From assembly GCA_050949525.1 (NCBI GenBank), contig JBMNFW010000001.1, forward strand, positions 463,890-527,889: DNA of 64,000 bases. Direction: 5' to 3'. This stretch comes from Patescibacteria group bacterium (GTDB lineage: Bacteria; Patescibacteriota; Patescibacteriia; Patescibacteriales; UBA12465). Positions within the stretch are counted from its first letter, which is position 1. Each line of letters begins with the position of its first letter. The notes under the pieces are model-generated. The model saw nothing but the letters and a program-made list of their open reading frames with translations. It ran no database searches and was not told the DNA's origin. Position numbers and translations under genes: made by a program. This document shows positions 36,176-60,952 of this stretch, one piece after another.

Positions 36176-36394
36176 ATGAAAAATATTAATGTAACTCTGA
36201 ATGGAAAAATTGGAACTATATTTTTACCAATTTTTCCAACCAAGGAAGAATTTGAATTTTTTAAAAAGGAAAACCCCCTACAATTGGTAGAGGTAAGTTT
36301 TCCTAAGGGAGGAATATCTTTTGTTCCTCTCAAGGACTTAAATTATGAGTCCGCAAATAATGGTTACATCCCCTTCAAAAATGGCTGGGATTAA
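36176..36394 (+). CDS. Hypothetical small protein
   Basis: 72-aa ORF followed by a terminator; no recognised family. Confidence 0.4.
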   Translation: MKNINVTLNGKIGTIFLPIFPTKEEFEFFKKENPLQLVEVSFPKGGISFVPLKDLNYESANNGYIPFKNGWD

Positions 36395-36427: not shown

Positions 36428-38179
36428 TTATTTCATATCTTTAGTTTCTTGAATAATTCTTTTGATCAAATCTTCACGACTGATACTTTCCATTTCTTCT
36501 TGCCCCCTAATTCTTAAGCTTAATTGATCACTCTCTAATTCCCGATCCCCAATCACTACTATATAAGGAACTTTTTGTGATACTGCTTTTCTAATTTTCT
36601 TAGCCACTGTTTCATTATCAATATCTATTTCTGGTCTTAAATCAAGATCCAATAACTCTTGTTTTAATTTTTGACAATAATCCACATGCTTTTCTCCAAC
36701 TGAAATAATTTGTAATTGAACAGGAGCCATCCAAACCGGAAAAGCTCCTCCATAATGTTCAATTAAAACACCAAAAAATCTCTCTAAAGATCCTAGTAAA
36801 GCTCGATGAATCATAATAGGCTCTTCCTCTTTTTCCGGTCCCTGATAAGTCATATTAAACTTCTTAGGATTTTGAAAATCTAATTGAATAGTGGTTAATT
36901 GCCATTCTCGCCCAATAGAATCTTTAGCCTTAATATCTAATGATGGTCCATAAAACTTAGCCCCACCCTCCTCAATCTCATAAGGCATATTGAAATTAGA
37001 AACTACTTCTTTAATGGTATTTTCCGCTAAATCCCAAATCTTTGGATCACCCATATAATCCGATAAATTCTTACTATCCCGTATAGCAATATATCCTTTT
37101 AAGTCAGTAAAACCAAACACCTTAAAAACATCTAAACTAAATTGTAAAACTTCTTGGTACTCATCAGCAAATTGATCAGGGCGACAAAAAATATGAGCAT
37201 CATCTTGAGTAAAACCTCGAACTCGTAACATACCATTTAATTCCCCACTCTTCTCATAACGATAAACAGCTCCCAATTCATTCCAACGAAAAGGTAAATC
37301 TCGCCAAGAACGAGGTTGGGAATTATATATTTCCACATGAAAAGGACAATTCATAGGCTTAACATAATAATCATCTCCCTCTACCTTCATTGGCGCATAC
37401 ATTGAATCCTTAAAAAAACTTAAGTGCCCACTAGTTTCCCAAAGCAAAGAACGACCAACATGAGGAGTATAAACAGTATCATAACCTCTTTGACGATGAA
37501 AGCGACGCCAAAAAGATTCTACTACTTCTCGCACCTTAGATAATTTAGGATGCCATAACACTAATCCCGGACCAACTTTTTCACTAATAGAAAATAAATC
37601 TAAATCCTTAGCTAAACGACGATGATCTCTTTTTTCAGCCTCCTTTAAAAGCTCCAGATAACTATTTAACTCCTCCGCTTTATTAAAAGCTAAACCATAA
37701 ACACGAGTTAACATTTTATTCTTCTCATCTCCTCGCCAATAGGCTCCGGCTAGTTTATTCAATTTAAAAGAATTTAAATCAACTTGACCTGATGACTCCA
37801 AATGAGGTCCTCGACAAAGATCAGAAAACTCAGCTAATTGATAATAACTAACTTTAGTTTCCCCAGTCGCTTTTAAATCTTCTAAAATTTCTAACTTATA
37901 GATATCATCAGCTTCACGAGCTTCATTAATAGCTAAATCAATATCTTTTTCACTTCGTTCAAATTTTAAATTTTGCTTCACAATATGTTTCATCTTTTTC
38001 TCTAAATCCACTAAATCATCTTCACTTAGTTTTTTATCTCCCAAATCGATGTCGTAATAAAAACCATTATCAACATCAGGACCAATAGCAAACTTAACCT
38101 CTGGATAAGTTCGTAATATAGCTAAAGCTAAAATATGAGCCAAAGAATGGCGTTTAATTTTTAAATTTTCTTCATTCAT
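36428..38179 (-). CDS. thrS: Threonyl-tRNA synthetase lacking the N-terminal TGS domain
   Basis: 583 aa; starts at the editing domain (KRHSLAHILA..AIGPDVDNGFYYD). MCRGPH-like LCRGPH, AGAYWRGDEKNKML, RVRGFTQDDAHIF, MIHRALLGSLERF. Confidence 0.93.
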   Translation of the reverse strand: MNEENLKIKRHSLAHILALAILRTYPEVKFAIGPDVDNGFYYDIDLGDKKLSEDDLVDLEKKMKHIVKQNLKFERSEKDIDLAINEAREADDIYKLEILEDLKATGETKVSYYQLAEFSDLCRGPHLESSGQVDLNSFKLNKLAGAYWRGDEKNKMLTRVYGLAFNKAEELNSYLELLKEAEKRDHRRLAKDLDLFSISEKVGPGLVLWHPKLSKVREVVESFWRRFHRQRGYDTVYTPHVGRSLLWETSGHLSFFKDSMYAPMKVEGDDYYVKPMNCPFHVEIYNSQPRSWRDLPFRWNELGAVYRYEKSGELNGMLRVRGFTQDDAHIFCRPDQFADEYQEVLQFSLDVFKVFGFTDLKGYIAIRDSKNLSDYMGDPKIWDLAENTIKEVVSNFNMPYEIEEGGAKFYGPSLDIKAKDSIGREWQLTTIQLDFQNPKKFNMTYQGPEKEEEPIMIHRALLGSLERFFGVLIEHYGGAFPVWMAPVQLQIISVGEKHVDYCQKLKQELLDLDLRPEIDIDNETVAKKIRKAVSQKVPYIVVIGDRELESDQLSLRIRGQEEMESISREDLIKRIIQETKDMK

Positions 38180-38392
38180 AAAATTATTAATTAATATTTA
38201 ATAAAAAACCCGTTCCAATAATTTAAAGTTAATTAAATTACTAGAACGGGCTTTCCCGCGGTTCCATCTAGTTTCCCTAAACGGGCACTTATTTTTATCT
38301 TCCTAAGCTTAGTCCTTTGAATAAAAGATTACTCGCTAAGTAACTAGATTTGGTAGATCTAGCAATCACCTAAAAAAGATAATGAGATATTA
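38180..38392 (-). ncRNA. T-box-like leader of thrS (antiterminator/terminator switch, candidate Thr ACC specifier)
   Basis: Minus strand: AACUAGAUGGAACCGCGGGAAAGCCCGUUCUAG (T-box motif). Terminator CCCGUUC...GAACGGG + U6 (38203-38250). Hairpin CUAGAU-CUACCAA-AUCUAG (38344-38362). Promoter TTGACT-N17-TAATAT (38415..38387). Confidence 0.7.
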
Positions 38393-38421
38393 TCATTTCA
38401 AAAAAACAAAGTCAAGAAAAC

Positions 38422-39435
38422 TTAAACAAAGGTTCTAGTCTGATAACCAGACTTTAAGTCTTGAATAGTTTTCTTTAAACCATTTTCTAAAGTAACCACT
38501 GGCATCCAACCTAATTCATTTCTAATATAATGAGTATCGGGTAAATTTAATTGAGACATAAAAACACGACTTTCAGCAAAAACAATCTTAGATTTAGAAT
38601 TAGTTAATTCAATCACTTTTCTAGCCACATCAACCAATCGTAACTCCTCTTCCGAGCCAACATTAAAAGGTCCAGAAAACTCTGATTTCATAACCTTAAT
38701 AGCCGCATCAATAACATCATCCACATAACACAAGGATGAAACGAAATTTTCATCACCAAAAATAACAATATCTTCATTATTTAAAGCATTATTCACAAAA
38801 TCAGGTAACATTTGTTCATCCCTTAAAGCCATACGAGGACCATAAGTTCTAAAAACTCTAATAATCTTAGTATCTAAATTATATTTCTGACGATAAGTAT
38901 TTACAAAAGCCTCAGCAAAACGCTTTCCCTCATCATAACAAGCTCGCTCACTTAATTGATCAATTTTACCAACTTGACTTTCCTTTATTTTCTCTTTATC
39001 AGCATAATTACTCTTAGATCCATAAACTACTGAAGAGGAAAATTGTAAAAAGCGGGCCTGATATTTAAGGGCTGTTTCTAAAGCGTTATAAATTAACACC
39101 GAATTAGCTAATAATGTTTTTTTACAATTTTGAGAAAAATTTTTAACCGACATCGGACAAGCTAGATTATAAATCTCTTGAATACCTTGAAAAGCAACTT
39201 TAAATTTAGATAACTCAACTAAAGACTCTAAATCAATTGGATTATTAAAATCGTGGTTAATAAAAACAAAATCAGGATGAGATAATAAATGTTGAATATT
39301 ACTAGCCTGACTACTGGAAAAATCATCAATACAAATAACCTTACTATCTTTTAGTAATTCCTGACAAAGATTAGAACCGATAAACCCAGCTCCACCTAAA
39401 ACTAAAACATTTTTTTTATCAAAAATAACTGACAT
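38422..39435 (-). CDS. NAD-dependent sugar-nucleotide epimerase/decarboxylase (UDP-glucuronate decarboxylase-like SDR)
   Basis: 337 aa; VLVLGGAGFIGSNL Rossmann motif, SSSVVYG, YDEGKRFAE (YxxxK). Confidence 0.8.
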   Translation of the reverse strand: MSVIFDKKNVLVLGGAGFIGSNLCQELLKDSKVICIDDFSSSQASNIQHLLSHPDFVFINHDFNNPIDLESLVELSKFKVAFQGIQEIYNLACPMSVKNFSQNCKKTLLANSVLIYNALETALKYQARFLQFSSSVVYGSKSNYADKEKIKESQVGKIDQLSERACYDEGKRFAEAFVNTYRQKYNLDTKIIRVFRTYGPRMALRDEQMLPDFVNNALNNEDIVIFGDENFVSSLCYVDDVIDAAIKVMKSEFSGPFNVGSEEELRLVDVARKVIELTNSKSKIVFAESRVFMSQLNLPDTHYIRNELGWMPVVTLENGLKKTIQDLKSGYQTRTFV

Positions 39436-46995: not shown

Positions 46996-48471
46996 TTAAA
47001 CTTTAAATTTTCTTTTCATATCTTGATCATCGGCCTGCCTCTTTTCAGTAATTATTTCTTGAGCTGATTCTCTCAATTCCTCTAAATCTAATTTATCCAA
47101 TTCTAAGGCTCGTGATTTTAATATTTCTAATTGATTCAAGTTAGGGTCCTCCAAAACCTCAGCTAACAATACATCTAAAATAGCACCCATTTTAGGTCCC
47201 GGTTTCATACCTAATTCCTCAATCATTATATCACCATTAATCTTAAGCATTTTAACTGAAACCGGATCATTCTGTACTTTTTCCATCATATACTGTAAAT
47301 GTCGTAATTTATATGGCATAGCTTTAGGAGTTCCAGAACCTAATCTATCAGCGACTCGTAAATCAATCAAATCTTTCAAATTTTCTCGACCCGTTTTAGC
47401 AATTAAACGCCTAACTGAAGCGGCACTTACTTCACCAACATTATAATAAAACATATGATTTCTAACCAAATTAACCACCATCTCAATATCATTATTAGAA
47501 AATTTTAATCGAGTCATAATCTTCTTAGTTAATTTAGCACCAACATACTCATGATTATAAAAAGTACGTTGATTATTAATAATCTTTAAAGAAGACGGCT
47601 TGCCAATATCATGTAAAAGGGCTGCTAAACGAACTTGCCACTTAGAACTAGGACAATGCTTTAAAGATAAAAGATTATGTTTCAAAACTGTATAAACATG
47701 ATGGTGATTTTGTTTAACCTTATCCCCAGCTAATAATTCAGGAATAATATATTGTAATAATTTAGTCTTTATTAAATAAACTATTCCTTCATAAGCTCGA
47801 TCAGAAGCTAATATTTTTATTAACTCATCCCTTACTCTTTCAGCTGAAATAAACTTTAAACTACCCGCCATTCTCAATATCGCTCGCTCAGTTTTAGGTT
47901 CTAAACTAAAAGCTAATTGAGAAGAAAAACGAATAGCCCGCATCATACGTAAGGCATCCTCTTTAAAACGATCTAAAGGTTCACCAACAGCCCGAATCAC
48001 CTTTAACTTAATATCTTTCAGGCCACCAAATAAATCAACCAACTCCATAGTCCCCCAATCAAATTTTAATTCTTGACTAGAATATTTAGATCTCTTAGTC
48101 AAACCTAGAGCCATAGCATTCACAGTAAAATCACGACGTCTTAAATCCAAATCTAAATCTTCCTCAAACTTAAGTTCATCAGGACGACGATGATCTCGAT
48201 ACTGCCCCTCACTGCGATAGGTAGTAATTTCAAAAACAGCTAAAACTTTTCCGGTTTCATCTTTATGAGCTAAAATCACTGTGCCAAAATCATTTTCATA
48301 TTTAGCTTCTGGAAAAAGGGCTAAAATTTCCTCCGGCTTAGCTGAACTAGTTAAATCAATATCAGATGGAATTTTTCCCATTAAAAGATCTCGTACTGTC
48401 CCCCCGACTATATAAGCTTCAAAACCAGCTTTTTCAATTTTCTTTAATACTACTAAGACTGTTTCAATCAT
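46996..48471 (-). CDS. cca: CCA-adding tRNA nucleotidyltransferase with HD domain
   Basis: 491 aa; GGTVRDLLMGKIPSDIDL, RRDFTVNAMA, HD domain LLHDIGKP. Confidence 0.85.
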   Translation of the reverse strand: MIETVLVVLKKIEKAGFEAYIVGGTVRDLLMGKIPSDIDLTSSAKPEEILALFPEAKYENDFGTVILAHKDETGKVLAVFEITTYRSEGQYRDHRRPDELKFEEDLDLDLRRRDFTVNAMALGLTKRSKYSSQELKFDWGTMELVDLFGGLKDIKLKVIRAVGEPLDRFKEDALRMMRAIRFSSQLAFSLEPKTERAILRMAGSLKFISAERVRDELIKILASDRAYEGIVYLIKTKLLQYIIPELLAGDKVKQNHHHVYTVLKHNLLSLKHCPSSKWQVRLAALLHDIGKPSSLKIINNQRTFYNHEYVGAKLTKKIMTRLKFSNNDIEMVVNLVRNHMFYYNVGEVSAASVRRLIAKTGRENLKDLIDLRVADRLGSGTPKAMPYKLRHLQYMMEKVQNDPVSVKMLKINGDIMIEELGMKPGPKMGAILDVLLAEVLEDPNLNQLEILKSRALELDKLDLEELRESAQEIITEKRQADDQDMKRKFKV

Positions 48472-53694: not shown

Positions 53695-53723
53695 TCTAAC
53701 TACCTCGTGCTAGCACGATGATG

Positions 53724-53814
53724 CGGAGAGGGGGGGATTCGAACCCCCGATACGAGTAAAAGCTCGTATAACACATTAGCAGTGTGCCGCTTTCAACCAC
53801 TCAGCCACCTCTCC
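53724..53814 (-). tRNA. tRNA-Ser (anticodon GCU), class II, no encoded CCA
   Basis: Manual fold: acceptor GGAGAGG/CCTCTCC, anticodon loop CUGCUAA, long variable arm TACGAG/CTCGTA, T-arm GGGGG-TTCGAAT-CCCCC, discriminator G. Confidence 0.9.
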
Positions 53815-54398: not shown

Positions 54399-54470
54399 GT
54401 CCCTGTAGTTTAATGGATAAAACGCAAGATTGCGGATCTTGTAATCTAGGTTCGATTCCTAGCAGGGACA
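54399..54470 (+). tRNA. tRNA-Arg (anticodon GCG), no encoded CCA
   Basis: Manual fold: acceptor GTCCCTG/CAGGGAC, D-arm GTTT/AAAC, anticodon stem CAAGA/TCTTG with loop TTGCGGA (GCG at 54432-54434), T-arm CTAGG-TTCGATT-CCTAG, discriminator A. Confidence 0.85.
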
Positions 54471-54477
54471 CTAGTTT

Positions 54478-60866: not shown

Positions 60867-60938
60867 GGTCCCTTCGTCTAGTGGTTAGGACACCAGGTTC
60901 TCATCCTGGCAACAGGGGTTCGACTCCCCTAGGGATCA
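60867..60938 (+). tRNA. tRNA-Glu (anticodon CUC), no encoded CCA
   Basis: Close to E. coli tRNA-Glu by eye: acceptor GGTCCCT/AGGGATC (one G-U pair), TCGTCTAGTGGTTAGGAC D-arm, anticodon stem CCAGG/CCTGG with loop TTCTCAT, T-arm AGGGG-TTCGACT-CCCCT. Confidence 0.85.
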
Positions 60939-60952
60939 CAACCAAAAACTAA

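Follow-up and report, generated by a model that had tools for sequence, protein, structure and literature searches.

A predicted T-box riboswitch with an ultrashort Stem I and a four-way junction upstream of thrS in Patescibacteria

The window analyzed here is a stretch of 64,000 nt from contig JBMNFW010000001.1 of a Patescibacteria group bacterium and has a G+C content of 31%. On its minus strand, the 242-nt gap between a gene for an NAD-dependent epimerase (38422..39435) and thrS (36428..38179), the gene for threonyl-tRNA synthetase (ThrRS), is occupied by a leader for which we propose a function as T-box riboswitch. From 5' to 3', this leader consists of a promoter, a 5' domain (38382-38295), an A-rich linker, a discriminator, an antiterminator, a terminator with a tract of six U residues (U6), and an A/U stretch of about 23-24 nt between the U6 tract and the ATG of thrS. 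The features are as follows.

38387..38415, minus strand: sigma-70-type promoter with -35 box TTGACT (38415-38410), 17-nt spacer containing TG, and -10 box TAATAT (38392-38387)
38368..38382, minus strand: 5' strand of the predicted helix P0 (UUAUCUUUUUUAGGU), pairing with 38308-38295; innermost pair U38368-G38308
38363..38367, minus strand: junction strand GAUUG, between P0 and Stem I
38344..38362, minus strand: ultrashort Stem I of 6 bp (CUAGAU/AUCUAG) with the 7-nt apical specifier loop CUACCAA
38354-38352, minus strand: Thr codon ACC in Stem I's apical loop, followed by A (ACC-A, 38354-38351)
38329..38343, minus strand: hairpin 2 (UUACU-UAGCG-AGUAA), a plain helix abutting Stem I
38313..38328, minus strand: hairpin 3 (UCUUUU-AUUC-AAAGGA), abutting hairpin 2 and CUAA
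38309..38312, minus strand: junction strand CUAA, between hairpin 3 and P0
38295..38308, minus strand: 3' strand of P0 (GCUUAGGAAGAUAA)
38273..38290, minus strand: 5' part of the discriminator, with AAGUG (RRRxG, 38290-38286), Stem III (CCC-GUUUA-GGG, 38285-38275) and AA (38274-38273)
38240..38272, minus strand: antiterminator, consisting of helix A1, T-box bulge and helix A2
38272-38267 with 38245-38240, minus strand: helix A1, 6 bp (ACUAGA with UCUAGU)
38266-38260, minus strand: T-box bulge, 7 nt (UGGAACC)
38259-38246, minus strand: helix A2, 5 bp (GCGGG-AAAG-CCCGU), closing pair G38259-U38246
38203..38253, minus strand: intrinsic terminator of about 20 bp (38253/38250-38209/38206) and U6 tract (38208-38203)
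36428..38179, minus strand: thrS, threonyl-tRNA synthetase, 583 aa (Pfam tRNA-synt_2b, HGTP_anticodon, tRNA_SAD)
38422..39435: gene for NAD-dependent epimerase, on the other flank of the leader gap

We interpret the leader as a T-box riboswitch that would attenuate transcription according to the charging state of tRNA-Thr(GGU). To this reading, which is based on sequence analysis, we assign a probability of about 85%. A T-box switch acting on thrS had been suggested in an earlier note on this DNA, and the suggestion is supported by the recurrence of the layout upstream of thrS in 123 distinct sequences.

The discriminator of a T-box is recognized by 5'-RRRxG, Stem III, AA-3', a 7-nt bulge and a G-U pair that closes A2 and serves as steric sensor (PMC7583486). 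The window leader has all of these, its 5' part reading AAGUG-CCCGUUUAGGG-AA. The T-box motif, A1, the bulge and A2 are located where the earlier note had placed them, and a hairpin CCC-GUUUA-GGG described there is Stem III (38285-38275). The T-box core, TGGNACCRCG, occurs once in the 64 kb, compared to 0.05 expected occurrences, and the leader fold has a z-score of -6.3. The promoter upstream of these elements, which is seen at a similar place in the relative L083 (TTGACT-17-TAATAT), allows a transcription start near 38383-38380 to be inferred.

The arms of the terminator are CCCGUUCUAGUAAUUUAA...UUAAAUUAUUGGAACGGG (38250-38209), with 20 pairs counted in the scan. Its 5' arm reuses CCCGUUCUAGU, which contains the 3' halves of A2 and A1. 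Because positions 38250-38240 are common to the terminator and to A2/A1, the two folds are mutually exclusive. With calculated energies of -40.5 kcal/mol for the terminator and -16.7 kcal/mol for the antiterminator, the terminator is far more stable, which suggests that the switch, like other T-boxes, is off by default. A sequestration of the Shine-Dalgarno sequence was not found in the window leader; a strong terminator with its U-tract is located upstream of the start codon.

The leader family was collected from Patescibacteria genomes and from metagenomes and comprises 123 distinct homologous leaders (several family counts are based on 121). Nearly all of them precede thrS where the downstream sequence is long enough to tell. 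The first sample consisted of 80 species-representative genomes with related ThrRS genes, and UGGAACC[G/A]CG was found just upstream of thrS in 8 of these. The leaders from the candidate phyla radiation (CPR) that were found first share GAUUG, a 6-bp stem, the loop YYACCAA and the 3' arm, while the stem sequence is different in every genome; the five CPR leaders listed score 36-49 bits with the Rfam T-box model (RF00230). Three further genomes, found by the Stem I motif, keep the hairpin and have diverged T-box cores. When leaders were fetched by the identity of the encoded ThrRS (L083, 80%; L087, 74%; L090, 71%; L093 from Falkowbacteria, 70%), the layout was kept, and the changes were compensatory.

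A further set of leaders was obtained by a metagenome scan that was free with respect to the codon: GAUUG, CUAAR and the T-box core were fixed, while three loop positions and the variable base of UGGN were left open. Among the matches listed, ThrRS is encoded downstream wherever the sequence suffices, either directly or as the second gene. In a negative control with a looser pattern that lacks CUAAR, applied to viral contigs, all 19 matches had at most three of the six stem pairs. Two loci have another gene in first position. In L122 (minus strand, leader at about 1630-1730), an open reading frame (ORF) for 203 aa comes first and is followed by thrS, which appears to be split by a frameshift in the contig; the second position of thrS implies that the T-box controls a two-gene operon there. 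In L163, a gene for a HAD-hydrolase-like protein is the first one after the leader, and the contig ends at this point. Four loci (L015, L019, L028 and L054) are labelled "uncultured Gammaproteobacteria" and carry a thrS leader of the CPR type, a CPR-like ThrRS and a G+C content of 33-42%, so these labels look doubtful.

The features of the 3' half are well-conserved in the family. Of 121 members, 117 have the bulge UGGAACC and 106 have AA after Stem III, and A2 is closed by a G-U pair in at least 93. The purine string before Stem III is mostly AAGUG, AAGCG, AAGAG or GAGUG. The variable base of UGGN is A in 119 of 121 leaders and G in the remaining two, and either base is able to pair with U. 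An intrinsic terminator with at least four U residues was scored in 115 of 121 members (median 19 bp, -25.7 kcal/mol), and most members scored as terminator-less show visible terminators with interrupted U-tracts. The terminator overlaps the 3' strand of the antiterminator in 111 of 121 members, which supports the competition between terminator and antiterminator that the earlier note had described. One otherwise typical member (L181, minus strand, T-box region) has an insertion of about 60 nt in the A2 loop, in which GAUUUGCGAUUUAU is tandemly repeated (x2).

In the 5' half, the earlier note had found no canonical long Stem I and had drawn attention to a hairpin displaying ACC in a 7-nt terminal loop. 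Both observations are corroborated by the family. Stem I is a 6-bp hairpin, and its specifier is in the apical loop rather than in an internal loop; the codon corresponds to the amino acid of the regulated synthetase and is followed by a purine. For the analysis of covariation, an alignment (alignment A1) was used in which the columns are set by GAUUG, the 7-nt loop and CUAA alone, so that it is gap-free and avoids circularity. In this anchor-defined alignment, Stem I is 96.8% paired, and all six pairs change on both sides. Each pair is represented by 4-6 pair types, and the 123 leaders have 90 distinct arm sequences. An RNAalifold analysis of nine full leaders independently recovers Stem I as well as the terminator. 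The related thrS leaders thus show the covariation for which the earlier note had called, and they keep the ACC loop and the alternation between antiterminator and terminator.

ACC proved to be invariant even though the scan did not ask for it. Among the 80 loci listed for the codon-free scan, Stem I is paired (at least 5 of 6 pairs) in 76, and the loop triplet is ACC in all 76 paired loci; their UGGN motif is UGGA in 75 cases and UGGG in one. The other four loci, with at most three Stem I pairs, have other triplets and are chance matches. ACC is also read in all 16 CPR leaders that were found independently. The architecture was not encountered with another codon or another gene among the listed matches of the metagenome scan, where it is combined with ACC and thrS only; it therefore appears to be specific to thrS.

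The loop follows the format Y-U/C-ACC-A-R and is anticodon-loop-like. The leader of Escherichia coli thrS is an operator for ThrRS that mimics the tRNA. A comparable autoregulatory operator, in which the hairpin would resemble the anticodon arm and bind the ThrRS protein, would fit the position upstream of thrS and the geometry of a 7-nt loop on a 6-bp stem. However, the loop sequence ACC is a codon, complementary to the Thr anticodon, and not an anticodon-like NGU, and the loop is followed by a complete T-box discriminator and a terminator, which would be superfluous for a protein operator. This makes a protein operator extremely improbable. Ribosome-mediated attenuation, in which a leader peptide would sense Thr codons, comes close to negligible: in the 5' domain of the window leader, a frame that begins with GUG and extends over 24 codons can be read, but it contains a single Thr codon, the equivalent frame in L083 stops within three codons, and the substitutions keep base pairing, not codons.

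The remainder of the 5' domain is predicted to be organized by a long-range helix, P0, which was missed in the earlier note. Within P0 would lie Stem I, hairpins 2 and 3, which are both plain, and the strands GAUUG and CUAA, resulting in a four-way junction. Apart from these two strands, the junction has no single-stranded segments. Hairpins 2 and 3 are separated from each other and from their neighbours by 0-1 nt. Instead of hairpins 2 and 3, the earlier note had a hairpin CUUAG...CUAAG. This hairpin is not conserved, as it joins the variable segment of hairpin 2 to the invariant junction strand CUAA. It is replaced by UUACU/AGUAA (38343-38329) and UCUUUU/AAAGGA (38328-38313), and the G after CUAA is the start of the 3' strand of P0.

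P0 was absent from every search pattern. In the anchor-defined alignment, its four inner pairs are paired in 97, 94, 92 and 72% of the members and change on both sides. For the first of them, the main types are CG (44), UA (40) and UG (33). The R in CUAAR is thereby explained, because this base (G38308 in the window) covaries with the base preceding GAUUG. The energy of P0 is -6.0 kcal/mol with the real partners and -3.3 kcal/mol when partners are swapped (p = 1e-23). For the whole structure, the covariation score is 0.81, compared to 0.27 in shuffles, and none of 500 shuffles reaches it; a displacement of the partner by 1-3 columns lowers pairing from 79% to 38% or less. When only the boundary was fitted, hairpins 2 and 3 had at least seven of eight outer pairs in 72% of the members, compared to 8% of the shuffles. 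Folding in isolation found both hairpins in 59 of 121 members only, because short A/U-rich stems have positive energies. An alignment of full leaders (MAFFT with RNAalifold) recovers Stem I and the terminator only, because the length-variable middle is misaligned, so that P0 and hairpins 2 and 3 are supported by the anchor-based tests. GAUUG is present in all 14 four-way-junction leaders that were found independently of that motif or by protein similarity.

Canonical transcriptional T-boxes are exemplified by the tyrS, thrS and glyQS leaders of Bacillus subtilis. The window leader shares with them (RF00230) the regulatory logic, RRRxG/Stem III/AA, A1, A2, UGGNACC, the G-U pair and the mutually exclusive terminator, as well as a specifier codon that matches the amino acid of the regulated synthetase and is followed by a purine. 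It differs in that Stem I has 6 bp, with an apical specifier, instead of roughly 80-100 nt. The specifier internal loop, the AG bulge, the distal loop and the signature of the kink-turn (K-turn) are absent, a P0-closed four-way junction is present instead, and the host belongs to the Patescibacteria rather than to the Firmicutes. With glyQS-type T-boxes, which have no Stem II domain, it has in common a minimal decoding domain and a fairly G-C-rich codon-anticodon helix (ACC/GGU, with two G-C pairs), whereas glyQS retains the long Stem I, the elbow-binding platform and the K-turn.

The sequence from the inferred transcription start to RRRxG spans 92 nt only. The window leader was found to have no long Stem I of the kind in which a specifier internal loop is combined with an AG bulge and a distal loop, the latter two forming the elbow-binding interdigitated T-loop motif (IDTM). 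No K-turn signature was detected at the sequence level, as GAU-UG/CU-AA lacks the G-A/A-G tandem, although a non-canonical kink is possible. The AGUA/GAA signature of the Stem II S-turn is present in none of 121 leaders, and hairpin 2 is uninterrupted in 118 of them, with an internal loop or bulge in the other three. A IIA/B pseudoknot or kissing interaction was also searched for: pairing of the hairpin 2 and 3 loops with the linker, with the 5' leader or with each other does not exceed that of swap controls (p = 0.19-0.35).

T-boxes with an ultrashort Stem I have reportedly been described for actinobacterial ileS genes by Sherwood et al. in 2015, and the earlier note saw a resemblance to these. 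The ultrashort Stem I is a feature of the translational ileS T-boxes of Actinobacteria (Mycobacterium, Nocardia), which have a K-turn, a Stem II S-turn with a string of five purines and a IIA/B pseudoknot in linear order (PMC7583486, PMC10651847), and for which the specifier is assigned to the hairpin loop of Stem I (TBDB). The resemblance holds for the truncated Stem I without elbow platform, for the apical specifier and for the presence of two helical elements before the discriminator. It does not extend to the K-turn, the S-turn and the pseudoknot, which are undetected here, nor to the mode of action, as the element is transcriptional with a terminator; moreover, hairpin 2 is plain, hairpin 3 is followed by P0 pairing, and the amino acid is Thr, not Ile.

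The leader might nevertheless be an ordinary T-box of this actinobacterial type, with a K-turn, an S-turn and a IIA/B pseudoknot that have diverged beyond detection. Hairpin 2 would then be Stem II, hairpin 3 together with CUAA would be IIA/B, and GAUUG/CUAA would be a derivative of the K-turn. The apical specifier is as in that class (TBDB), and the succession of Stem I, a hairpin, and a hairpin with conserved tail is reminiscent of the order Stem I, Stem II, IIA/B. A further point in favour comes from a second minimal type of thrS T-box in CPR (L014:2810-2960, Moraniibacteria; L039:2207-2354, Wolfebacteria). In these two leaders, a canonical K-turn (C-stem, 3-nt bulge, GA...GGA, C-stem) directly closes a Stem I of 4-5 bp, the sequences being AAGC-CUU-GA...GGA-GCUU and GAGC-GAU-GA...GGA-GCUC. 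The GAU-UG of the window is exactly at the position of their K-turn strand. Against an actinobacterial type speaks that hairpin 2 is a plain helix in the family, that the S-turn signature is found in 0 of 121 members, and that loop pairings stay within the swap controls (p>0.19). In addition, the tail that follows hairpin 3 has its pairing partner in the 5' leader (P0) rather than in the loop of this hairpin, a terminator takes the place of Shine-Dalgarno sequestration, and UG/AA breaks the G-A/A-G rule for K-turns. We see only a slim chance that the leader belongs to this type.

The two K-turn leaders share with the window leader the apical ACC loop (CUACCAA / AUUCACCAA), the discriminator with UGGA, the association with thrS and the superphylum. 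They lack the P0-enclosed four-way junction and the GAUUG and CUAA strands; in L014, RRRxG and Stem III are not preceded by any Stem II region. GAU-UG and CU-AA of the window are located where these leaders have the K-turn strands GAU-GA/CUU-GA and G-GA. From this position of GAUUG, the four-way junction may be a derived form of the K-turn type.

Several observations weigh against the interpretation as a functional T-box riboswitch with this decoding domain. At the gathering score, Rfam has no T-box match at the window leader. The decoding domain is devoid of the elements that have been published as essential: a long Stem I that carries an elbow-binding platform (the IDTM) is a general requirement of transcriptional T-boxes, and T-boxes with a short Stem I need K-turn, S-turn and pseudoknot, while function without a K-turn was posed as an open question in a 2020 review (PMC7583486). 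The leader is lost in a relative with a 77% identical ThrRS, which has 34 nt between the genes and the same order of epimerase gene and thrS, so that it is dispensable there. Most family members were obtained with a pattern in which GAUUG, CUAAR and the T-box core were fixed, so that the invariance of these motifs is supported by the 14 leaders that were found without them. Finally, searches for a tRNA-Thr gene, among them an aragorn run on all loci, found none, either in the window or in related loci that add up to about 1.3 Mb and include 10 kb beyond either end of the window. As a side observation, the leaderless relative, with a contig of 901 kb, is represented by L085:9966-10001 and by L086:1778-1813. 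The T-box is thus lost in at least one lineage.

With regard to Rfam, a permissive local search gives an RF00230 match on the correct strand with 27.9 bits (gathering score 93; E = 1.8e-4). The alignment (AAACUAGAUGGAACCGCGGG...CCCGUUCUAG) is of good quality between Stem III and the antiterminator's 3' end, while nearly the whole Stem I part is deleted; the score remains below the threshold because the 5' half of the leader is non-canonical. Taken alone, this match is suggestive only. The earlier note had counted the lack of an RF00230 hit against its proposal; in the strict sense this is the outcome at the gathering threshold, while the local match recovers the 3' half. A separate family for the four-way-junction element was not found in Rfam 15. 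As a side observation outside this family, a metagenome-assembled genome of Spirochaetota (L011:2645-2918, 85 bits) and one of Promineifilum from the Chloroflexota (L080:2567-2844, 79 bits) contain thrS T-boxes that are near-canonical, having UGGA and a long Stem I. As both scores are below 93, threshold-based annotation would miss even these.

The low score and the close relative without leader might also be taken to indicate a relic or a structural leader, in which tRNA sensing has been lost and the terminator ends the epimerase transcript or attenuates thrS constitutively. The presence of a separate promoter between the epimerase gene and the leader can be read in the same direction, because the terminator is then unneeded for the expression of thrS as such. 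However, more than 120 diverged sequences keep ACC, the pairs of Stem I and P0, the 7-nt bulge, RRRxG/AA and the A2 G-U pair. A plain terminator explains none of that selection, and the terminator is located downstream of the thrS promoter. A relic of this kind is highly improbable.

In the preferred interpretation as a T-box riboswitch, the transcript would start at about 38383-38380, and the 5' domain would fold into the P0-closed four-way junction. Following the established T-box mechanism, the anticodon GGU of tRNA-Thr would pair with ACC in the Stem I loop. When the tRNA is uncharged, its 3' end, predicted to be UCCA with U73, would pair with UGGA of the bulge. The bound tRNA would stabilize the weak antiterminator against the terminator, so that RNA polymerase reads into thrS. 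Charged tRNA-Thr would be unable to dock in the discriminator, the terminator would form, and transcription would stop at U6. As to the absent helper motifs, we propose that they might be compensated for by a loop-loop contact between two anticodon-type loops, pre-organized by the junction. Such a contact would be similar to the stable complexes between tRNAs with complementary anticodons.

The gene for tRNA-Thr is usually located in the neighbourhood of tuf, and a tblastn search for EF-Tu in the collected related DNA gave no match. The tRNA genes in the window are those for Ser-GCU (53723-53814, minus strand), Arg-GCG (54399-54471, plus strand) and Glu-CUC (60867-60939, plus strand), and the 3' CCA is encoded in none of them. 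An ORF for 491 aa (46996..48471, minus strand) has PolyA_pol, HD and tRNA_NucTran2_2 domains and thus resembles a CCA-adding enzyme. The CCA-less tRNA genes and this ORF fit a system that reads an NCCA end which is added post-transcriptionally.

T-boxes are a model for the recognition of tRNA by mRNA, and their rules were derived almost entirely from Firmicutes and Actinobacteria. A full-text literature search, within which subscription journals were out of scope, retrieved no T-box paper on Patescibacteria, the candidate phyla radiation or Parcubacteria, and the groups mentioned in the TBDB preprint's text are Firmicutes, Actinobacteria, Chloroflexi and Deinococcus-Thermus. The four-way junction with a 6-bp Stem I and apical ACC is a structural variant that is new to the known class of T-box riboswitches, not a new kind of system. 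More specifically, it may constitute an undescribed class of decoding module that is thrS-specific and widely distributed among Patescibacteria, has a P0-closed junction with the codon in an anticodon-loop-like apical loop, and acts co-transcriptionally without elbow platform, canonical K-turn, S-turn or pseudoknot. For this more specific proposal, we consider the chances to be even. If it is correct, this would be the smallest natural tRNA decoding by an mRNA seen so far, and a natural counter-example to the requirement of transcriptional T-boxes for a long Stem I.

More than 120 natural variants combine an ultrashort Stem I, in which helper motifs are undetected, with a transcription terminator. 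With a compact size of about 180 nt, they lend themselves as a natural test of what tRNA decoding needs at the minimum, and of the kinetic argument on co-transcriptional ligand capture. They also point to regulation of an aminoacyl-tRNA synthetase via tRNA charging in Patescibacteria, where almost no gene regulation is known. With its gathering score of 93 bits, Rfam misses the Patescibacteria thrS leaders entirely. The genetic tools that are now emerging for Patescibacteria could make use of the leader as a regulatory part of native origin.

Concerning the relationships of the window, its ThrRS is identical to proteins encoded on two NCBI metagenome contigs and has relatives that are graded at 80, 77, 74, 71 and 70% identity. 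The relatives with a name are assigned to "Patescibacteria group", Candidatus Falkowbacteria, Parcubacteria, Pacebacteria and Portnoybacteria. This places the host among the Patescibacteria (CPR), in the vicinity of the Falkowbacteria. A metagenome contig from JGI (Ga0534105_00092, L234, 742,870 bp) codes for an EF-Ts that is identical to that of the window and shares neighbouring genes with it; this contig is probably a near-complete genome of the window's species. In a second assembly of the species, with an identical ThrRS (L082:9740-10003, compared to 38180-38440 in the window), the leader has few substitutions. One of these is in the pair that closes the loop of Stem I (U-A to U-G) and another in the 5' strand of P0 (U to C, changing U-G to C-G); pairing is kept in both cases. 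Convergent to the 3' end of thrS, the window has an ORF for 72 aa (36176..36394, plus strand) without a Pfam match, and an ORF for 72-79 aa is called at the equivalent position in several relatives (L083, L090, L093).

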